51,437 bases of DNA from Bacteroidia bacterium (GTDB lineage: Bacteria; Bacteroidota; Bacteroidia; NS11-12g; UBA9320), in the NCBI GenBank assembly GCA_047620825.1, contig JBLHOC010000002.1, positions 1 to 51,437 of the forward strand. Reading direction: 5' to 3'. Made by a program: the position numbers and the translations under genes. This document shows positions 6,673 through 30,755 of the stretch, in pieces. Position 1 is the first letter of the stretch. Every line of letters begins with the position of its first letter. Below the pieces are notes generated by a model. That model was not told the DNA's origin. It ran no database searches and saw only the letters and a program-made list of their open reading frames with translations.

Positions 6673-6740
6673 TCATAAAACTTGTCCGTAGTTGAAATAT
6701 GTCATCATTGTTTTCCTAAACAACTTGACCATATTTGTGT

Positions 6741-7328
6741 ATGAAACATTTTCATACTGGCTTTGTGGTGTTCCTGTTGCTTTTTGGGTTTTCATGTGGT
6801 TCAATTAAAAACATTGGATTAGAACCAGACTATAAACTTAAATACGATATAATTACGGGCCAAAAATCCGTTAGACTTGAGGTTCTAGTCGTAAAAGACA
6901 AACCTGAATGGATATTTGAGTATACGATCAAAGAGGAAAATTTGTCTGGCAGAATTAAGTCAACTGCGAAGGCCATAGACTCATCCAGTGAATTATTTCA
7001 TACGTTCAACGGACTTGATAAAACGCAAACTTCTGCGACGTCTCTAAAAATAAGCCGTCATTCCTACCAACAATTGAAGTTGGGTGAAAGCGTTGACCTG
7101 TCCTATCGGATTGGCTTTGTGAAAAACACATTGCCGTACAAAGTGGTCGAAAATAAAAGTCTTAAATATTTGATTGACGGAAAACTACGCATGCTCAATG
7201 TGCTTTATATTGAGGATACGCTAAACAAAGGTCATAGTTTGTGGGTGTGGGATAATCCAAATGCGCCAATAATCCTGCGTTTGAATTTTGGAAATGAAAT
7301 CGTTATTAAAGAAATTGAAACACAATAA
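6741..7328 (+). CDS. Hypothetical lipoprotein
   Basis: ORF with signal MKHFHTGFVVFLLLFGFSC/GS. The ATG at 6741 is preferred over the TTG at 6735. Confidence 0.6.
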   Translation: MKHFHTGFVVFLLLFGFSCGSIKNIGLEPDYKLKYDIITGQKSVRLEVLVVKDKPEWIFEYTIKEENLSGRIKSTAKAIDSSSELFHTFNGLDKTQTSATSLKISRHSYQQLKLGESVDLSYRIGFVKNTLPYKVVENKSLKYLIDGKLRMLNVLYIEDTLNKGHSLWVWDNPNAPIILRLNFGNEIVIKEIETQ

Positions 7329-10103: not shown

Positions 10104-13100
10104 TTATAGTTTCACCACACGTGCCGTAGAAGACAAGTTGCCAGAAGTCACAGTGACAAGATAAAGACCCTTTTGCCAAGCATGACTAGAAATGGGTTGA
10201 TTACCGTCTTGAGTAAACACCACCTTTCCTGTTAAGTCGGAGACAATAACGCTCAGTTTACTTAAATTAGTTTGAATATAGAACAGATCATAACTCGGAT
10301 TATGGTGTATAATTAACTTTATATTATTGACGCTAAATTATTGAATATTATATGTCTATTTCTAATTTGGTACAGTAGAAGAAGCATTCTTGTAACTTGT
10401 AGATGTTTGAACATGAGCTTCAGTCCATATGCTTACAATAGCAGCGTCAACATCTGCACATGATAATAGACTTCCGGAGGTGGGACACCCCTAATATTGG
10501 ATTTATAGTGGGTGCTGCTGGACTGAACAAATATTGTTAAACAAAACACCAGGCATATACTCGTTAGTATTAGTCTCATTTGTTGGTTTGTTTAGGCGTG
10601 TATATTAAAGTACCAATTTGCCCTTGTTCTTTCTCCACCTCGACTTCTACTCTATTTTCATTGGCATAAGGGTCTTTTCTAATTCCAGTTACCTGCCAGC
10701 TCAGCTTGACATTGGGCTTGTCGGTTTTAATGGTGAACTGATTATCAGTGATTTCTTCATATATAATGGCTTGGGCAAAAGTGCCAACGCAAGTCAATTG
10801 ATATCGGAACTCCATATTAAGAGATTCGAAATAAGACTGAAGAGTTATAACTATCTAGCTGTTTTCATCTGTTTGAGCATTTCCGTTGTAAATGTTCATC
10901 ATGTCGGGTGATTCGATAAATGAGTGATACAGGTATTTGTTGTAAGGATCTTGGGGATGATCGATTCTAAATGTTCCACCACCTTTACTAATATTCCCGT
11001 TTACCTGGAGGTTCCCGCTTATCTGCATGCTACCATTTACCTGAGCAAACTTGTTAATATAGGCCGTATCCTGAACGAATAAGGAGTTGCCCGCATTGAT
11101 AAAACTTGCTGAGAATGTGGTTGGATTTCTGCCAGCATCCAACGCCATAAACCCTTGATATGGTATTATCTGTAACCCGAGCTGATTACCACTGGAATCT
11201 ACCGAATTTAAGAAAAGCTCATCTGAATTTGGAGATTCTTCAACCATCAAGCAGCCCGTGTTAAACACAACTTGTGACGATGATACACCTAATGTTGTTT
11301 TGCTTGATGTTGCATAATCCCAATCTGTACCCATTTGACGAGAGCTGTTATCGTATAAACTTTGGAATGAAGTCGTAGGTACAAATACCACGTACCTACT
11401 ACTTCCAATTAATGAGATTGTGGAGTCGAATTGCGTAAACCCAAGTGCCATAGTGTGATCATTTGTATCTCTGGAACCGAACAAGCTCACACCATTTACA
11501 TATTCATAACCCGTTTAAATGCCCTCTGATTCAAAACCAGTGGCGATCCACTATAAATGATGTTGCTGTCTTTTGGGTCTACTGTTGTTGTTATTATACG
11601 ACCGTTATCGTCCTCAACGGTTTCTGTTTTTTTACCATCAGAAAGTCGATCTTCAATAGTTAGCTTAGCAGTAAATCTCCCGAACGACTCAAATCTTGGG
11701 CTAACGTCTTCTCCTATTTTATGCCCAAAATCATCTTCAAAGTCCCAAACGATTGTTGTGTCAGTGGCATGGGTTTTAGTTTCTTTTGTTTTATTCCCTT
11801 CGTTAGTAACAGCACTCTTCGCCCCATCGTAGTCCCATTTAAACTCAACAGTTACTGCGTCGTCTGAAATGCGATTTTTGACTTTTGAAGTATCTGTAAT
11901 AACAATATGTTGCCAATCATTTTGGCCATATGTGTTTGTACCAATGCCTTCAAACGCTTGCAGACCTTCTTTAGGATCTAATTTTAGGTCAATAACATTC
12001 CCATCTGTATCTGTCTAGACAAACTGGATGGTCGTATCCTTGGTATGTGTTTTCTCTTCTTTTGTTCCACTGCCTTCAGTCTAACTACGTTATCGTTTCC
12101 GTCGAACTCCTACTCGAATCGGACTGTGCCACCTGTATTGGTAATACTGTTCTTTTGCGTTCCAGAGTCCCGGGTTGTTATATATCTTAAATCACGTTCG
12201 TCGTATACAAGCCTATCGAACCCATCGTAAGTCGCAGTTCCAGTCTCCGGGTCTCTATCTTCTCTCATTTCCGAACCTTTGCTTCGATTTGTTTGCTTAG
12301 AACCGCCAGTGCTGTCGTATTCTAAAACGACATTGTTGTTGCCGTCGAATTCATATGTTTCAAGTCTTACACCTTCTTTTTTAACTTCATCAGTTTCTGG
12401 CATATGTGTTTCGCTCATTGCCCGATCTAAATCGTCGTAGTATTCCGTCCTACTATTTCCATTTGTGTCACCTCGGATGACAACTCTACGGTTACCGTCG
12501 TATTCAGCTACAAAACTGTCGGACTTAATGCCATCTGATATTATTACATCATTAAACTCAAATCCAACATTGCTCATATAAAACCAGAAAGTATCCCCAT
12601 TCCCCAAATCAGTTCCGAAACATTGTTGATTTGTAGTAGGTACATAAATCTGGAAATCTTGGTTTTTCCGCGTTGCGCTTTTTTTGTCTGGATTAACAGA
12701 TGTCGAGGAAGTCTTGCCTTTGGAGTCGTTAGTATAAGTAGCAACTGTTTTGCCACCTTCCATGCCAACAACGTGTCTAATCCACCGTTTTTGAATTGGA
12801 TATTTCGCCAGTTTTGGGATTTATTTTGGTGTGAAAAGTGTCTTTACCAACCCTATGTATGATGAGGTGTTCATCATTATTCACGAATTCGGATTTTGTG
12901 ACTTCAGGATTCTCGAATCTCGTTTCTAATAAATTTGGATCAGTATGTACAATACGCCCGAGCAATCTTACCACCGCTCTTCTACGTCGATTCCCTCTGA
13001 ATAGAAAAGGCCTTTAATTACAGGATCTCTCTCGTATCAAGTTGTAATTTTCGAATATTCTAATAGATTGCCACCTGGACAATATATTAAATACAAAGAG

Positions 13101-13811
13101 ATATTACATACACCACTACCATTGTTAGGAGGCACTGTCATGACTGTAGATATAACTTTTCCTTTGTTATTTCCATACTGCAGTGTCGAAACAATCTGGA
13201 TAGATCCGTCTGCGAATGGTGTTTTCTCTATGGATAGAAAACCGCCATTTGGGGTTTTTTCAACTTGTTTGGTAGGTGAATTCGTACTCAAATTATACCA
13301 CACGGTATCGTGTGCAACCATTTTAAATTCCCCAGTATTTGGATTTAAAACCATTCTTACATCTCCGTTTTTATCTCGAAGCACCAAACTATCGCCAAAA
13401 CGAAATTGGCTTTGTTAGATGCACTGTCGGCATAAGCAGCACGTACAGCTAGGGCACAGCTAATATCCGCACATTCGGTGTCAGGGGTTCTTTGCCATTA
13501 ATACCGTCGTTAAATGGAATTTCGAGGTACATCTCATCGTTGTCAAAAATTGATTTGGCAATAGCAGGTTGACTGCCACTTCCTAGACTTACGGAATAAT
13601 TACCATTGTTAACAGAAACGGATATTAGACCACTCGCCCAAAGGTAAGAAGCGTTATTGTCTAAAATTCTAAATTCAAAGTCAAAATCTCCATCAAAACC
13701 AAGACCGGAGGTGTCTGTAATGGACCCCTGATAAGGAATGATATTTGGTATTTGAGCATGAACTACGGCACTAATACCAACAGCCAATAAACAAAGTATA
13801 AATCGTTTCAT
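10104..13811 (-). pseudogene. Heavily eroded gene for a large T9SS-secreted surface protein (tail-fibre-like N-module, YD-like repeats, IDHP..NKYLYHSF module, T9SS CTD)
   Basis: Fragments on the minus strand join into one reading. Signal peptide plus IIPYQGSITD module at 13449..13811. Then VPYAVRAAYADSASNKANF and LRDKNGDVRMVLNPNTGEF (13037..13387). Then 12777..12974. YD-like repeats YEFDGNNNVVLEYD / ATYDGFDRLVYDE at 12110..12763. Unlisted frames cover 11500..12110. RIDHPQDPYNKYLYHSFIESPDMMNIYNG at 10855..11490. FRYQLTCVG...SWQVTGIRKDPYA at 10576..10815. A T9SS CTD (IIHHNPSYDLFYIQ...VSDLTGKVVF...KGLYLVTVTSG...ARVVKL) at 10104..10320. About 18 stops or frameshifts separate these pieces. Confidence 0.7.
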
Positions 13812-20651: not shown

Positions 20652-22105
20652 ATGAAGGCATTAAGGAGCTTGTTTGCAGCAGGGTTTGTTTTGATTGGAG
20701 CCCAAATGGGATACAGCCAATCCTTGCGTATCGTTTATGATTTTATTCAAGATGAGGTACATTATTATCGTACCAAAGCCGGTGACCCAATCGGAAAAGA
20801 AATCAGTTCCCCAGTTGTTGGCCGAGACAAAATTGTGAGCGTTGAAGTAATAAATTTCAACAAATTTGTTTACGCCGCGGATGCCACTTATACATCTAAA
20901 ACAGTTGAAAAACAGTCGGACATGGTTTTTTGGATATCATAAGCCCTTTGGTTAACCCATTGGGATCTGGTAGTTTTTTTACTGCACTGGGCGGCAGCCT
21001 ACCTGATGAAATAGGTAGAGGAGGCTTGATGGCTTCAAGAGGAGCGAGCTCTGCGTATGATGACATATTAAATGCCTACAAAACATTGTCTATCTTGGAA
21101 AACGACATGAAATCAGTGTACTATGCTATTACTAAACTCAACAAACTGAAGTATAATCCTTACTTGCCATCGGATACCATTGTCAATATGTCGAACAGGA
21201 TTGTGGCTCAAATTTTCATCAAATCCGTCATGAATCCAAGTGACTTCTCAGAAGTTATTGTTCGTTTTAATAAGAACTATATCTCATCTTTATCCAACTT
21301 AAAAACATCAACGATATCGTTTTTGAGGGAATATGACTCTTATGCAAGTAGAAACGAGGGAAGTTTTGAAGGTCGGGGTTTAGATGCTGCTGTTCGCCGT
21401 TTTAACACAGAAGTAAGTCAGATTACAAAGACATTCAATTCAGATTTTATCACAGAACAAATCGATTATTTGGAAACGGTTTACTCTTCTATTATATCTA
21501 CACGTTACAGGTTTAATTCAAGCCACGGGGCTAAAGACGATGAAATTGATTTGACTTTGAACTTCTATAAGGTACCTATGGACGAGAAAGGAAATCATTT
21601 GTCTGTAGATCGAAGCAAGCTAAGGGAGTTGTCAAGAATTAAAGAGAAACGGATTAACATCACGGTTAGAGGAGATATTAAAGTGTCTTCAAGTATTGGA
21701 CTTGCCTTCCCTAAGTATCAAACGACTAACGAATATATCTATCGCGACAGTTCTATCATATCAGTTGATGGCAGCAAATTCTCACCAAATTTAGGGGCTT
21801 ACATCAATGTTTATTCTTACACCGGTCGTACCGTTCAATTGGGAGGTACATTTGGAGTAGGGGTGCCAATGCAGGATGAACAAAAGAACGTGAACATGTA
21901 TCTGGGTTTAACAGCACTGTTTGGTTCAGACAGCAGAGGCGGTTTAAATGCTGGGGCAAGTTTAGGGCAAGTTAAAAAACTAGGTGCGGGTTACGAAATC
22001 GAAAATTCGCTGCTACCCGGGGATCTAACTATACCAACACGAAATGTTTGGGAGTGGGGGACTTTTATCGGCATATCATTTAACATCGCAAAAACAGGAA
22101 CTTAA
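20652..22105 (+). pseudogene. Hypothetical exported protein split by a 1-nt frameshift in a T6 tract (20926..20931)
   Basis: ORF 20652..20942 (signal MKALRSLFAAGFVLIGAQMGYSQS) and ORF 20930..22105 overlap in different frames. One extra T would read ...KQSDMVFLDIISPLVNPLGSG... continuously, giving about 484 aa. Confidence 0.6.
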
Positions 22106-22347
22106 TGGGTTGGTTTTGGTACATAATTCTTGGAGCTCTTTCGGGCTGGTTAACTCAAAAGTTACTAAAGCGTGAATCCAAAGGGTTCATTAAAAACTTA
22201 CTGCTTGGCGCAATAGGTGGGTTTGTAGGATCTTGGATTTTTAAATTGTTGCGACTATCTCCAGAACCGAGTAAATTAGGCTTCGTTGTTACCGCCGTTG
22301 TTGGTGGTGTAGTTGTGGTTTGGTTAGCCGACAAATTGAAGTCATAG
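22105..22347 (+). CDS. GlsB/YeaQ/YmgE family (transglycosylase-associated) small membrane protein
   Basis: 80 aa with Gly-rich helices: ILGALSGWLTQKL...LLGAIGGFVGSWIF...VVGGVVVVWL. Confidence 0.8.
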   Translation: MGWFWYIILGALSGWLTQKLLKRESKGFIKNLLLGAIGGFVGSWIFKLLRLSPEPSKLGFVVTAVVGGVVVVWLADKLKS

Positions 22348-25623: not shown

Positions 25624-25657
25624 TTAAAAAAAAGCCGTGGATTAATCCACGGCTTTT
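25624..25657 (-). terminator. Rho-independent terminator closing the protease island
   Basis: The minus strand reads AAAAGCCGTGGA-ttaa-TCCACGGCTTTTTTTT, about 20 nt after the reconstructed ankyrin stop (25679..25681). Confidence 0.75.
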
Positions 25658-25678
25658 GAACCTTATTGTTATTGTGGT

Positions 25679-26166
25679 TTAGAGTTTTCCTTTTTCTGCC
25701 TTCTTTAAGTATTTCGCAGCGTCTTTAAATTTAATACCTTTTGCAACTTTTCTCGGTGTTCTTCCTTCGTTGTTAGTTCTTTTTGGGTCAGCTCCTTTTT
25801 GAAGTAATGCTTCAATCGTTGCCATGGTTCATTGTGAAACGCCAATATGTAAAGGCGTTTTTTCCATTTGTTTTTCGCGTTAACATCAGCGCCATTGCGG
25901 AGTAACTCCTTAACAATGTCAATCGACCCCTTTGTAATCGCCCAATGCAATGCTGTGTTGTTTCGATTGTCTTTGATACTTAAATCATAGCCTTGTTTAA
26001 GGATATATTTTACGGCATCCAAATTTCCTTTGTTTATCGCATAATACAGCATGGTTTTACCTGCGCCGAGATCTAAATCAACCTTCATACCATTGTCAAT
26101 CATGTTTGTAAACATCTCTGTTCTACCATGCGTTATACCGTTTTGCGTTGTTTTTTCGGATCGCAT
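25679..26166 (-). pseudogene. Ankyrin-repeat module, disrupted; probably the C-terminal part of the upstream trypsin-like protease gene
   Basis: Classic ANK repeats are present: GKTMLYYAINKGNLDAVKYILKQGYD and NNTALHWAITKGSIDIVKELLRNGADVNAKNK. After an A6 run (plus-strand T6 at 25858..25863) the ANK pattern continues in another frame as PLHIGVSQ*TMATIEALLQKGADPKRTNNEGRTPRKVA...KGKL. That frame has an in-frame TGA at 25829..25831 and a TAA stop at 25679..25681. Confidence 0.65.
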
Positions 26167-27025
26167 ATTCTAAGTTATTATATACTGCTAATGCTTTTAT
26201 GCTTAGCGGCATCGATGTAATCCGCTGTACTTCCGTACTCATCGTTGATGGAGCGTAACCCAAATCGTCATAAATGGATTCAGCGTCCACGTTGTCGTAT
26301 CTAACTTCTTTTACGCAACTACAAGTTGAATCAACATAGTATCCCTTCGCACCTTTATCAACTCTACCTCTTACCAAAATACCTTCAATCATGTTTAATC
26401 CGGCAGTGTTGTAAACTGGTCCGCCAGAGTTTCCTCCAAAAGCGTCTATGTTAGTCCCGAACCAAGTCCCAGCCGAGTTCATCGTAACTTTTGCGCCGTC
26501 AGCAAGTTTTAACGGAAGACCAGCAGGAGCGCCAATCATAGCTAAGTTATCTCCTTTGGCAATTTTAGCGCCGGTTCTAAAACGGAACGGGGCACGATCA
26601 GTTTCTCGATCAAGTAGTATGACAGCGTAATCTAATCCACGTGCACGGTCAAGAATGCCAATAAGCACTTTTTTAACGCCATACTGTTTTGATGTTGGAA
26701 TTGTTGCAACGTAGTATCCTTTGCCTTCTTGGGTTTTTCTTGTCATCCTAATATCGTTTGTATAATCAACAACCCAATATTTTTCACCAAACTTCATGTT
26801 CTCTGGTTTATCATTATAACTCTTGTGAAACACAACTTTACCATCTCTAATTTCGTGCTGATCACCTGAAATACAATGACCTGCAGTGACCATAATATTT
26901 GGTGCAATTAAGAAACCCGTGCATCCACCTAAACTCGGTTGATTTTTAAACCTAAGGTTGGGGTCCACTTTATCAGCTTTGTAAGCAGATTTAAGCAATT
27001 CTTCCAGTGTCCAGCTATAGGCCAT
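26123..27025 (-). CDS. Trypsin-like (S1, V8/Trypsin_2-type) serine protease without a signal peptide; its 3' end is probably frameshifted away from the ankyrin repeats
   Basis: 300-aa ORF with the triad contexts MVTAGHC (His), LDYAVILLD (Asp) and GGNSGGPV (Ser). The last ~25 aa (KALAVYNNLEYAIRK) already look ANK-like. The ORF overlaps the ANK ORF out of frame at an A6 run (plus-strand T6 at 26151..26156). Confidence 0.8.
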   Translation of the reverse strand: MAYSWTLEELLKSAYKADKVDPNLRFKNQPSLGGCTGFLIAPNIMVTAGHCISGDQHEIRDGKVVFHKSYNDKPENMKFGEKYWVVDYTNDIRMTRKTQEGKGYYVATIPTSKQYGVKKVLIGILDRARGLDYAVILLDRETDRAPFRFRTGAKIAKGDNLAMIGAPAGLPLKLADGAKVTMNSAGTWFGTNIDAFGGNSGGPVYNTAGLNMIEGILVRGRVDKGAKGYYVDSTCSCVKEVRYDNVDAESIYDDLGYAPSTMSTEVQRITSMPLSIKALAVYNNLEYAIRKNNAKRYNAW

Positions 27026-27076
27026 CTCCTTTAAAATCTTTTTTGTTCATGCGCGTTATTACGGCACTCGTGTAAC

Positions 27077-28050
27077 CTATGCAATCATACGTTTTTGCTT
27101 CCTTTCGACAGTCGTATCAGTTGCATTAAATGTTTGAACACTTGACCCGTGTGTTTTTAAATAGAAGTTAAAAATAATGGTTTCAATATCTCCCTCAGCT
27201 ACAACGATTTGGTTTTTATACATCTGATAGGCATGTACTTTTACGGATTGATAGAAAGACTCGTAACTTATACTATCAGTTAATTCTTCCAGTTCTCTAG
27301 CAAATGCTAAGCTGAGTATACCATTCCCATTTAGTTCGTGTGCAACACTATGAATCTGGTTTGCAGACAAATGAAATAGATTGGCGTAACCTGTGCTTGG
27401 TATGGAAAACGGTTGATCATCCATAATGCCTATTTCGTTTTTTCCAGTATGTGCGAAAGTGTGCATTTGATAAGAGGGTTCTAATAGAAGATTTCCACCC
27501 CGAGTATATTTTTCATCAGAATGACTATCCCACCCAAAACCTGCGTCTACAATAACAATGAACTCTCCGAATTCCCCGAGTTTAATGCGAAATCTATTGA
27601 TAATAGCCCTGAGCTCTTCATCTAACAAGTGATTTTCATTTTTATATAAGGCGTCATATGTTTTTGGTGCCCCATAGCAGACAAGCGATTCGTCGTAGCC
27701 ATCCTTTTCATCCGCGTTGTAATCTAATACGAGTTGACGTGACCGCTAAAGTAAAATAGAACAATATCACCAACGTTACAACTGTCATACAATTCATTCA
27801 TAGCAGCAATAATTCTATCCTTAGTTTTCTGTGTATTAACGAGTTATGTAACATCATTGAATCCAACAGTTTTGATGGATTGCGACATAACATTAACGTC
27901 ATTATCACCATGCGTTTCACTCCAACCAGAATCCTCGGTATATGAACCAACCCCAACCAAAACGGCTCTTTTCTAAATGGCAAATATCAATTGAGTAAAC
28001 CCTATCAAGACCAGGATTAGTAACGAGATCTTAGCGATTCTCTTAAACAT
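27077..28050 (-). pseudogene. Exported caspase-like (peptidase C14) protein, disrupted (copy A)
   Basis: Hand translation gives MFKRIAKISLLILVLIGFTQLIFAI*KRAVLVGVGSYTEDSGW...GFNDVT*LVNTQKTKDRII...GDIVLFYFSGH. After a 1-nt shift it continues QLVLDYNADEKDGYDESLVCYG...FIVIVDAGFGWDS...HLSANQIHSVAHE...ISYESFY. Lesions are TAG 27973..27975, TAA 27844..27846 and a frameshift near 27738. The expected D-x-C-x-S-G reads DAGFGW. Confidence 0.65.
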
Positions 28051-28135
28051 ATTTTCAAATAGTGTCATGTGTTGTTATTTAACTATATATATGTTTATCA
28101 ACTACTTAGGTAAATGATTAAATGTCATTTTTGTA

Positions 28136-30128
28136 TTATCGTCTGATCTCAAATCCAATATATGATGTGGACGCTTCCATGCCTGAACTGCGCACTTTTT
28201 GAGTGATACCCCCCCTGTTTGCTTGCGAATATCCTTCTCGAAACAAAGTTTCCAGTTGATATTCTATATCACGCATTCGGGGTTTTTTCGTTAAAATTGG
28301 TGTAAAATCTATCGGCTCTTTACTGGCAAATAGTTTAAATACCTCCATTCCGTACGGCGCTTGAAAAGTGACAAAACTTCCTGGAACAATAAAGCTTTGC
28401 CCTGCTTTGATCCTAAAATCTTCGGGATTTTGCTTTAAGGTCGGATCTTCGGCTGGCAAAATACCGTTAATGCCGCCATCAGGTTGAATGTCGATTACAC
28501 TGAAATATGCATCGTTTGTTCCAATATGGCTTGCTTTGATGAGTATAGCTATTTGATCAGACTCTTTAAAAAACATTCGACCATTATCTGAAATATCTTC
28601 AATTTTCAATGTGTCTGTGACTTTATATGAATCATCTGCCAGCACTTCATAACGCACTGGAATAAATTCGAAAACAACATTATATCGTGGGTCAGTAAGT
28701 TCTAAGTTTTTCATGTAAGTGCCTCGCGAAAATGCTTTTAAGGTCTCCACAAGTTCAGCATAATTGTTGTCTGAAGACAAGTTTTCTGCAAACACTTTAT
28801 TATCGGTGCTGCGTATCATGTCTATGTTCCCTCTGCCACCAGCTTCAATGATAAAATCCACATCTTTTTTCATTAGCGAGAACTATGGAGAGTTTGATAT
28901 AGCTGCCGCGACACCAGCATTTTGGGCCTTATCCCAAATGTCTATTCTCAAACAGATGGTTATTTCTCCGAAACTATGTTCAGTGATAAAAAACCAATAA
29001 TCATCCAAAGAACCATCCAGATCTTTTTCAAATTCTACTTTACACCAGGTGCCTTCCGAAACGATAACCTTCCCAGCTGCGATTGGACTTTTCCCTTTTA
29101 TGGATGTTGTTCCAATAGGATAAGCCGCGATGGAAGCGTTATCAAATATTCCATGCAATTTTCCACCGTATAAGAATGCCGTATTGTCTCTTACTTTAAA
29201 GGCTTTATAAAATGGTTCTTGCTCTATCACTTGACCGGCGAAAAGCGCACGATCAATATTGCCTTCAATGGCTGGTTTTTGTGATGGAGCTAATACAGAC
29301 ATTTTCTTTTAAGATTTGAGCAAAAAAACCACGATACGTCATTGTGCTATTCATTTTGTCAACACTCCGACTAATTGCAGTAGATAAAGAACCTGCACCT
29401 TTATATTCATAATTGACCTCTGAAGCCTGTGCACCAGAAATTACAACCAATGGTGCCAATAAACTGGCATCTATATGTTTTGATTTTGATTGGAACACCC
29501 CTACGTCGTCAGTACCTTTTGTAGCCACATAGCCAGGTCGATGCATTTTAGGCATCCCGCCTCGACTTATTTCTTCACCGCGAGAAACAGTTCCAGAGTG
29601 ACATGCGTCAGCAAACATGATTACATCACCGGTCGGGACAATCTTTAATCTAGGAGTAATAATTCAAGTTCATCATCTCTTAAATGCTGCGAAAAATCAT
29701 ATCCATCTTTATAAGCAGGTGGTGCACCAAAGGTTACAAATCGCTTCATCATATCCATCTATTTCATTCCCATTGTCATCTTCAATTTGTTGTCCGTGCG
29801 ACGAAAAATGAATGATAACAACATCACCCTTTTGGCTTGTTTTTGTGAGACTTTTGATGGCCGTAACGATACCTTCTTTTGTAGCTTGCTCGTTTTTTAA
29901 TATATCAATATGCTCAGTTTGAAACCCTTGTTTTTGTAATGCGGATGGAATCAAAGGTATGTCGTTGACACTACTAATGTCTCGCCAATCGGGGGTTTGG
30001 CCAGATTCAGGGTAGTCCCCAATAGCGATTATCAAACCTTTTTTGGTTTGTGCTTGGAGCGAAAATGCGTGAAGAAAAAGCAAGAGACATGTGATGACGC
30101 TTACGAATAAATTTCCTTTCAATCTCAC
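28136..30128 (-). pseudogene. Exported caspase-like (peptidase C14) protein with a C-terminal DUF4384-like domain, disrupted (copy B)
   Basis: A signal peptide (LKGNLFVSVITCLLLFLHAFSLQAQ) is followed by KKGLIIAIGDY...VVIIHFSSHGQQIEDDNGNEIDGYDEAI (His box). About 26 codons then run in another frame (FGAPPAYKDGYDFSQHLRDDELE) before the original frame resumes with KIVPTGDVIMFADACHSG (Cys box). There is a frameshift in an A-rich run near 29301..29312 and an in-frame TAG at 28883..28885. ORF 28136..28873 follows, with AYFSVIDIQPDGGINGILPAE...IKAGQSFIVPG...YGMEVFKLFASKEPIDF (DUF4384-like). Confidence 0.7.
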
Positions 30129-30410
30129 TAAGTTTTCCTTTGTAATGACTTTGATACTTACATTTTGAAACGACCAATATAGTAAACGCTTTAATGTAAG
30201 GTTATTGTCAAAGTAACTTAAAGTGGACCAGAATTGCAATAGGTCATATGCCTTAATTTGACTAGCAATATATAACTTGTAGTAAGACGCGCTTAGGCAT
30301 TTATACCTAATGATAAGTAGAAAATTCCAAGTACTAAATGTAGGCGATTACTAGTTAAAATGAATTTCAATACTAATATTGTATATAGAATCAATTGAAA
30401 ATATAAGAGC

Positions 30411-30755
30411 TTGCTAAACCCAGCAGACATAGAATCCATAAGAACTAAAATTCTTGCACAGCTTAAAAAACTGGAAGTGGATATTAAGGAGTATAAAGAA
30501 TTAACAAAGCCGATATCTCCTGAAAATGCGATTGGAAGAATTAGTCGAATGGATGCGATCAATAATAAATCTGTTAATGAAGCGGCCCTGCATAATTCAA
30601 AAAACAAGTTGGTACGATTACAAAGATCTTTGTCGGAATTGGAGTCAAAATCCTTTGGTTTATGCAGACAATGTGGTGAGGAGATTGAATTAGCGAAACT
30701 ACTGGTCATGCCAGAAAGCATCAGGTGCGTTACGTGTGTTAAAAGTGCTCGATAG
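30411..30755 (+). CDS. DksA/TraR family C4-type zinc-finger protein
   Basis: 114 aa with a coiled-coil N-terminus and C-terminal CRQCGEEIE...RCVTC. TTG start. Confidence 0.75.
   Translation: MLNPADIESIRTKILAQLKKLEVDIKEYKELTKPISPENAIGRISRMDAINNKSVNEAALHNSKNKLVRLQRSLSELESKSFGLCRQCGEEIELAKLLVMPESIRCVTCVKSAR

Follow-up and report, generated by a model that had tools for sequence, protein, structure and literature searches.

The island of protease genes analysed here lies on the minus strand of a 51,437-nucleotide stretch of DNA, which we call the window (contig JBLHOC010000002.1 of assembly GCA_047620825.1, positions 1 to 51,437), from a member of the Bacteroidia placed in lineage UBA9320 of NS11-12g. 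Between 25.68 and 30.14 kb it comprises three pseudogenes. The first (copy B) encodes a caspase-like C14 protease that ends in a DUF4384-like tail, the second (copy A) a short caspase paralog, and the third (trypsin-Ank) a trypsin-like S1 protease joined to ankyrin repeats. Comparison with intact relatives suggests that these three genes, together with a fourth that is not adjacent to them, are probably the decayed copy of a conserved four-gene module of the Bacteroidota, whose products are all exported and would work as an extracytoplasmic protease system directed at arginine. The families to which trypsin-Ank, copy B and the fourth gene belong are referred to below as c0, c1 and c2, and individual loci by L numbers.

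Throughout 25.68-30.24 kb the listing of open reading frames (ORFs) contains only short, overlapping frames on the minus strand, the strand to which an earlier note, made from the sequence alone, had correctly assigned all the island genes. Pfam profile searches with these minus-strand fragments identify Peptidase_C14 (PF00656) at 29712-30239, with 42.4 bits against a cut-off of 21.4 (E 8.8e-11), Trypsin_2/Trypsin (PF13365/PF00089) at 26126-27025, with 45.3 bits for Trypsin_2 against a cut-off of 27.6 (E 1.9e-11), and ankyrin repeats at 25708-26166, with 64.8 bits for PF00023 and 66 bits for PF12796 (E about 5e-18). DUF4384 (PF14326), at 28139-28873, falls slightly under its cut-off of 27, at 25.6 bits. 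The profile searches thus uphold the C14, trypsin and ankyrin assignments of the earlier note above cut-off, leaving DUF4384 just short of it; of the "three or four" protease genes that it had counted, three are found and not four.

The state of these genes is made clear by frameshift-aware protein-to-DNA alignment against intact orthologs. Copy B (28136-30140, minus strand, about 660 residues if intact) has frameshifts at 29738, 29653 and 29303 and a stop codon at 28885, and the triplet orthologous to its ATG reads AGG (30139-30137). Copy A (27077-28068, minus strand, about 355 residues if intact, as aligned to L012 8904-9974) is interrupted by stop codons (27975 and 27846) and a frameshift (27738) and has lost its last ~34 codons by deletion. 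The trypsin-Ank gene (25679-27116, minus strand, about 510-550 residues if intact) lacks its first ~42 codons and carries frameshifts at 27026, at 26128 (with a further deletion of ~28 residues) and at 25863, followed by a stop codon at 25831. A single deletion of ~255 nucleotides removed the trypsin-Ank signal peptide along with the spacer and the copy A 3' end, and so fused the two genes. The lesions in the three genes, comprising frameshifts, stops, two deletions and the lost ATG, number about 14 rather than the "about 10" stops and frameshifts previously counted, and the alignment bears out the proposal that the island is a dead copy in which nearly all genes are interrupted.

The sequence of the locus, lesions included, is 100% identical at the nucleotide level in one short-read assembly from Logan and two assemblies from JGI. 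Four of the lesions are substitution stop codons and two are multi-codon deletions, and this, together with the complete identity in three assemblies, excludes assembly error. The pseudogenes are 68-78% identical to their counterparts in L012, the closest intact locus (50% for copy A), which is within the range shown by intact neighbouring genes (56-94%), implying that the inactivation is recent. On the sequence, then, the island is a recently inactivated, dead copy.

What did the island look like before it decayed? A genome scan with the trypsin-Ank homolog alignment gave 79 loci. The closest intact and collinear one, L012 (OX044357.1, an uncultured Bacteroidia chromosome), encodes a C14-DUF4384 protein of 667 residues, a short caspase of 356 residues and a trypsin-Ank protein of 552 residues, and L009 and L011 likewise carry all three island genes, intact and syntenic. 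Among 38 Bacteroidota loci, a long C14-DUF4384 gene lies within 10 kb of trypsin-Ank in 32 and a c2 gene in 24; in loci from other phyla, mainly Bdellovibrionota, both are absent (0 of 42 in each case). The neighbourhood is conserved over several Bacteroidota families in two gene orders. In the first, c2 is followed by C14-DUF4384 and trypsin-Ank, and in the second the order is trypsin-Ank, a DUF900 hydrolase, c2 and C14-DUF4384, to which marine Flavobacteriaceae add C14, CHAT and TPR-CHAT genes; extension by TPR-CHAT, CHAT and C14-TPR genes is seen in Winogradskyella, Leeuwenhoekiella, Seonamhaeicola and Bizionia. An independent metagenome scan that started from c2 recovered the same synteny (L093-95 and L098). 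The earlier note had valued the locus as a pointer to intact orthologous loci, and such loci do exist, their genes co-localised and in conserved order.

The fourth partner, c2, came to light when the ORFs of all fetched loci were clustered, as a protein of ~475 residues encoded beside the C14-DUF4384 and trypsin-Ank genes. Its counterpart in the window, at 20652-22105 on the plus strand, would encode about 485 residues if intact; it is 78% identical to L012 15233-16690 and is frameshifted at 20922. It lies 3.6 kb from the island, outside the region to which the earlier note had drawn attention, and in the window's clade c2 and the island are separated by genes for an M28 peptidase, a GT2 glycosyltransferase and a Transgly_assoc protein. 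When the segment from 15.9 to 38 kb is compared with L012 and L010, all 13 of the other syntenic genes compared give one near-full-length match each, leaving c1, copy A, c0 and c2 as the sole broken genes. That decay has struck this set of four, including one gene that stands apart from the rest, and has spared the genes in between argues for functional coupling. The genes for c0, c1, copy A and c2 thus form one unit, which is larger than the island as originally drawn. Joint loss is seen in related loci as well. In L004-L006 both caspases and c2 are cleanly deleted, and an N-terminally truncated trypsin-Ank gene remains, without the catalytic His region; in L096, L103 and L104 there is a split c2 and a 196-residue caspase (c1) remnant, with no c0.

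The 300-residue trypsin ORF of the window has 1684 homologs, nearly all of them Trypsin-Ank fusions of ~500 residues; their sources are Bacteroidota, Winogradskyella, Leeuwenhoekiella and Salinimicrobium among them, and many metagenome-assembled genomes (MAGs). The window copy is 68% identical to L012 10001-11659 and its ORF keeps the TAGHC, DYAV and GNSGGP motifs of the H/D/S catalytic triad, as well as an Asp at position -6 from the Ser; an intact ortholog scores 113.8 bits for ankyrin. The Pfam matches and the triad both confirm the previous description of an S1 trypsin-like protease whose 3' end runs into ankyrin repeats. Residues R38, H123, D206, S274 and D268 are invariant in the c0 family, D268 being the Asp at -6 from the catalytic Ser that is present in 45 of 45 c0 proteins. 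The family consensus begins with a signal peptide that ends in AQ and is followed by the invariant R38, some 14 residues beyond the predicted signal-peptide cleavage site. Both the signal peptide and the R38 region are deleted in the window copy. Since 40 of 43 intact trypsin-Ank proteins have a signal peptide by a crude test, the division that had been drawn between exported caspases and a non-exported trypsin-Ank protein does not hold; the window copy lost its own signal peptide by deletion. In L025, L026, L028, L030 and L045, two or three trypsin-Ank genes stand in tandem after a single C14-DUF4384 gene, with no c2 within 10 kb, and these copies are a paralog expansion of the serine protease partner.

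Copy B is 67.5% identical to its intact L012 ortholog across 662 aligned residues, and its His motif (HFSSHG) and Cys motif (DACHSG) can still be read. This His-Cys dyad is kept in all long c1 proteins that align over the catalytic region, and the intact ortholog scores 70 bits for C14. The DUF4384 match of the L012 protein is again under the cut-off of 27, at 21.8 bits; many homologs carry a precomputed PF14326 match. An AlphaFold model of P0161, a close c1 ortholog, has a predicted local distance difference test score (pLDDT) of 86, and its best Foldseek matches are the metacaspase AtMC9 (E 1.6e-12) and GSU0716 (3.4e-12), followed by AtMC4, TbMCA2, Yca1 and MALT1. The model suggests that c1 is a C14 protease of the metacaspase/orthocaspase kind, for which activity is predicted. 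Invariant arginines in c1 include R189 and R195-G196, in a low-pLDDT linker that follows Cys182, and R626 and R645-G646 in the tail. More distant C14-DUF4384 relatives, in Spirosoma aerolatum (L088), Flavobacterium sp. N502540 (L089) and Fodinibius salsisoli (L090), adjoin large C14-WD40 or TPR-CHAT genes and, in two of the three, a transposase or integrase.

Copy A presents a different picture. It is 50% identical to L012 8904-9974, its N-terminus is still readable as signal-peptide-like, and its ortholog matches the Pfam C14 profile with 41.3 bits. The catalytic Cys motif DACHSG is changed to DAGFG(W/S), with Cys replaced by Gly, both in the window (DAGFGW) and in the copy A proteins of L009, L010, L011 and L012, and in L011 the catalytic His is lost as well. 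Judged by these motifs, copy A is a clade-specific pseudo-protease, predicted to have a caspase fold without the catalytic Cys. Of the two caspase-like proteases first proposed, both are therefore caspases by fold, and only copy B by active site, the Cys of copy A being absent in all orthologs.

For c2, no family match was found in Pfam (E<=0.1), NCBIfam or PADLOC. A c2 profile run against the full library retrieves 196 cluster representatives at E<=1e-30, a number that rises to 439 when the threshold is relaxed to E<=1e-10. In the AlphaFold model (pLDDT 77.6, predicted template modelling score (pTM) 0.51) the signal peptide and a set of N-terminal β-strands lead to a disordered loop (residues 87-123), after which come long helices spanning about 160 residues and then about 11 β-strands at the C-terminus. 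Foldseek gives weak matches, for the β part to FadL, porins, Ail and OmpA and for the helices to ClyA; against the PDB there is a single match at E<=1e-3 (FadL, TM-score about 0.11), from which no fold is assigned. Provisionally, the C-terminus of c2 may be regarded as resembling an outer-membrane barrel. Distant c2 relatives (22-26% identity) adjoin exported C14-TPR/WD40 or TPR-CHAT genes (L112, L115-L120); the contig of the distant relative P0308 is so short that it shows no informative neighbourhood. The 80-residue Transgly_assoc gene next to c2 (GlsB/YeaQ/YmgE-type, 22105-22344, plus strand) is intact in the window, its start overlapping the c2 stop; it stays beside c2 in many of the loci L092-L104, even where there is no protease gene nearby (L099-L101).

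Signal-peptide-like N-termini are present in 130 of 141 system proteins by the same crude test, which suggests that all components of the module are normally exported. Pfam searches of c0, c1, c2 and DUF900 found no Por_Secre_tail sorting domain of the type IX secretion system (T9SS), nor did they find domains of two-partner secretion (TPS) or POTRA/ShlB domains, so that no secretion signal beyond Sec is recognised. Cleavage after Arg or Lys is characteristic of metacaspases, orthocaspases and paracaspase, and an Asp at the corresponding position of trypsin gives a preference for basic residues. By analogy with these fold relatives, and given the invariant Asp of c0 and the conserved Arg-Gly sites, an Arg specificity is predicted for both active proteases. 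The motif [ST]RG[SA] occurs at 0.06 per 1000 residues in 371 unrelated neighbouring ORFs, compared with 0.5-1.7 in c2, c1 and the accessory CHAT/C14 proteins. In c2, [ST]RG is found at one aligned position in 24 of 24 proteins, at the C-terminal edge of the low-pLDDT loop, and in the accessory proteases [ST]RGSK[AS]K stands immediately before the protease domains.

How might such a module work? We propose tentatively, as a plausible but less than probable reading of these sequences, that the intact module would be an extracytoplasmic, Arg-directed proteolytic cascade. The cascade would run in the periplasm or at the outer membrane, with c1 and c0 cleaving one another as well as their partners wherever an [ST]-R-G site is exposed. 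Candidates for such sites are R38 near the N-terminus of c0, the c1 linker after the catalytic Cys, the disordered loop of c2 and, in marine Flavobacteriaceae, the linkers that precede the accessory CHAT/C14 protease domains. Cleavage would then turn c2, the accessory enzymes or both from a latent to an active state. As to its role, conflict or defence at the level of the envelope, or regulated lysis, would fit better than housekeeping because of the dispensability of the genes, their repeated loss, the tandem duplication of trypsin-Ank and the mobile-element neighbours of some relatives; this is the weakest step of the argument. A more specific version, in which the module is an envelope death or defence switch with gasdermin-type logic placed wholly outside the cytoplasm, is speculative and rather unlikely. 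Here an Arg-Gly cut in the loop would set free the N-terminal domain of c2 and lead to opening or remodelling of the outer membrane, perhaps in response to phage, periplasmic predators or grazers.

Several observations weigh against a coupled Arg-directed module. There is no c2 within 10 kb in 14 of the 38 Bacteroidota loci, and the C14-DUF4384 relatives in Spirosoma, Flavobacterium and Fodinibius have no trypsin-Ank, so that the three genes need not occur together. Within the clade of the window itself the c1 linker site shows no conservation, and strict [ST]RG[SA] is absent from the DUF900 partners (0 of 11) and from distant c2 relatives, which limits the motif claim to the subfamily linked to c0 and c1. 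The fold of c2 is only moderately confident, with its pTM of 0.51 and no significant structural match. The three assemblies with the identical sequence are not fully independent if, as may be the case, they come from a single population, and a second fragmented gene in the window, at 10.6-13.8 kb, means that the genome has pseudogenes besides these.

The most serious alternative is that these are ordinary secreted proteases, nutritional or housekeeping, that are neighbours by chance and were lost by routine streamlining. All the products are exported hydrolases on this account, an M28 peptidase and a C1 peptidase are encoded nearby, the genome has pseudogenes elsewhere, and trypsin-like relatives are found in predatory Bdellovibrionota without the partner genes. 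Chance neighbours would hardly explain why the pair or trio is conserved over several Bacteroidota families in two arrangements, or why the non-adjacent c2 is inactivated or deleted with the others while the interposed M28, GT2 and Transgly_assoc genes remain intact. Nor do nutritional enzymes account for the interaction-type domains (Ank and TPR), the retention of a Cys-less pseudo-caspase, the lack of any T9SS C-terminal sorting domain or SusC/D context at the loci, or a shared [ST]RG[SA] motif enriched 10-30 fold. We therefore consider this explanation unlikely.

A module aimed at eukaryotes or at other bacteria, such as grazers, hosts or competitors, with c2 as its export or anchoring device, appears slightly less likely again. 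Ankyrin repeats are typical of effectors that act on eukaryotic cells, many carriers are marine, surface-associated Flavobacteriaceae, and the model of c2 has a certain resemblance to an outer-membrane protein. The only Ank matches in NCBIfam are to Legionella Ank effector models; these are weak, however, and far under their cut-offs. No signal is seen that would take the proteins past Sec (T9SS C-terminal domain, TPS or POTRA), and it is in the partners themselves that the conserved Arg sites are found, pointing to internal processing.

Could the genes instead encode a classical intracellular abortive-infection module, in which a protease activates an effector, of the gasdermin-protease or Avs/CHAT-effector kind, the direction in which the earlier note leaned? 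Proteases of the caspase and trypsin folds typically do the activating in systems of this type, and it is established that latent effectors, α/β-hydrolases among them, are cleaved at specific sites (PMC12642450). The DUF900 α/β-hydrolase and CHAT-TPR genes added in the marine loci would suit this interpretation, as would the integrases or transposases that adjoin some c1 relatives. The signal peptides on every component point the other way, since full export argues against a classical cytoplasmic effector. In addition, no STAND/NTPase, gasdermin, Pepco, EACC1 or CRISPR component is present in or beside the loci, PADLOC gives matches at the level of generic domains only, and the NCBIfam model caspase_w_EACC1 scores 22 bits against a cut-off of 140. 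We regard this as improbable. Least probable by far is that the genes are intact in the organism and only appear interrupted through sequencing or assembly errors: some frameshifts do fall at short homopolymers (A6 at 25863, T5 at 20922, A4 at 29303), and in L010, a related MAG, two frameshifts of the C14-DUF4384 gene (L010 6949 and 7824) fall at GGG runs and are either real or errors, but indel errors do not yield substitution stops or multi-codon deletions such as that which fused copy A to trypsin-Ank, and random error would not leave 13 of 13 other syntenic genes clean.

The minus-strand fragments of the island are closely spaced, with 67 nucleotides between 28136 and 28068 and 51 between 27077 and 27025. 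Downstream, an intrinsic-terminator-like hairpin (25657-25630, minus strand), with a 12-bp stem containing six GC pairs, a 4-nucleotide loop and a T-run, lies 21 nucleotides past the trypsin-Ank stop, as expected from the strong terminator that had been described there; it is the sole hairpin to stand out, terminators not being enriched in the region overall (4 compared with 5.2 expected). The upstream edge, at 30141-30410, is a divergent intergenic region that faces a dksA/traR zinc-finger gene and a SprT-like gene. The divergent arrangement had been noted correctly; neither of the two consensus scans supports the promoter placed in it, there being no exact copy of the Bacteroidota -7 motif TAnnTTTG in 30141-30410. 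That motif is under-represented across the window, and a sigma-70 scan, whose consensus is unsuited to Bacteroidota, gives 24 sites compared with 20.4 +/- 5.1 expected. A conserved non-coding element, TTACTTTGACAATAACCTTACATTAAAGCGTTTACTATATTGGTCG, lies at 30171-30216 on the minus strand, about 30-75 nucleotides upstream of the copy B start. This element of ~45 nucleotides is almost invariant in the window, L012 (~6715-6760), L010 and L009, and is partly present in L011, in genomes whose proteins are only about 50-70% identical. It fits neither the sigma-70 nor the TAnnTTTG consensus; given its conservation, it probably serves the cluster as promoter or operator.

The GC content of the island, about 0.37-0.40, is the same as that of the surrounding DNA and thus bears no mark of foreign origin; tRNA and Rfam scans of the window gave no matches. 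A 142-residue ORF at 30293-30721 on the minus strand, antisense to the dksA/traR-type gene (30411-30755, plus strand), is most likely spurious. The second decayed gene of the window, at 10576-13811 on the minus strand, is broken into at least six ORF pieces, among them a signal-peptide piece (13449-13811), a YD/RHS-like piece (12110-12763) and a C-terminal piece (10855-11490), none of the pieces having a Pfam match.

Caspase-like and trypsin-like proteases trigger many bacterial immune and cell-death systems, and those that have been characterised are, to our knowledge, all cytoplasmic and coupled to a sensor. The nearest concept to the present module is provided by the protease-effector modules, whose latent effector (gasdermin, Pepco, EACC1, MBL or α/β-hydrolase) is licensed by a cut at a specific site (PMC12642450). 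The resemblance lies in the pairing of caspase-fold or trypsin-fold proteases with a non-enzymatic or latent partner that has a candidate cleavage site in a flexible loop, in the DUF900 α/β-hydrolase of some loci, and in the patchy distribution and frequent loss. In contrast, all the proteins of the module described here have Sec signal peptides, no cytoplasmic sensor (STAND, Avs or CRISPR) accompanies them, and the partner c2, of ~480 residues, shows no similarity to gasdermin, Pepco or EACC1. PADLOC-DB 2.0 contains no system-specific model that matches; its only hits are to the generic 'caspase', 'Ankyrin' and protease-domain entries, with none for c2 or DUF900, and NCBIfam gives no equivalog match for the system proteins. 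No NTPase family appears in Pfam, NCBIfam or PADLOC searches of the window fragments and representative system proteins, or in the precomputed Pfam lists of genes neighbouring the system genes, and no gasdermin or other known pore-former is seen in any locus. A description of the cluster was not found among papers on DUF4384, on exported orthocaspases of Bacteroidetes or in surveys of conflict systems. The earlier note had recognised no described system in this architecture and had remarked on the lack of an NTPase/STAND sensor, gasdermin or CRISPR; the family and literature searches bear out both statements.

With orthocaspases and metacaspases such as GSU0716, c1 shares the dyad motifs SHG ... 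D[AS]CHSG and the metacaspase fold match. The combination of C14 with DUF4384 is already listed for cyanobacterial orthocaspases (PMC7475262), DUF4384 has been noted as fused to various proteases (bioRxiv 10.1101/2022.08.17.504292), and pseudo-variants without catalytic residues are known among orthocaspases (PMC6426788). Unlike these known orthocaspases, c1 is exported, has about 350 additional β-rich residues and is genomically coupled to trypsin-Ank and c2, and the pseudo-variant here is of a Cys to Gly type (DAGFG), compared with the Tyr/Ser type of cyanobacteria. For c0 the obvious parallel is with S1 zymogen cascades of the trypsinogen type, with which it shares the S1 fold, the H/D/S residues and an Asp at a position like that of trypsin 189; R38 could mark the removal of a propeptide, although the segment after this Arg is not of the Ile16 type, and an ankyrin fusion is unusual for an exported S1 protease. 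The TPR-CHAT, CHAT and C14-TPR genes of the extended loci recall TPR-CHAT proteins (for example Csx29 of type III-E CRISPR) and the multi-caspase/CHAT islands (Kaur et al. 2020, PMC7159879). Those conflict islands differ in that the loci considered here have no CRISPR, NTPase, vWA-MoxR or effector-associated domains and that their CHAT/C14 proteins bear signal peptides; the conflict-system survey (PMC7159879) makes no mention of signal peptides, secreted forms or ankyrin.

Finally, the window copy is itself non-functional, and its worth lies in the evidence of co-decay and in the intact versions to which it leads. The locus points to a conserved module of the Bacteroidota in which every part would be exported and in which the partner, c2, represents an unnamed family of about 200-440 sequence clusters. 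Cultured carriers of intact copies exist, among them Winogradskyella thalassocola DSM 15363 and Leeuwenhoekiella blandensis MED217, and for these the model makes a testable prediction, that cleavage would occur at [ST]R-G in the flexible loop.

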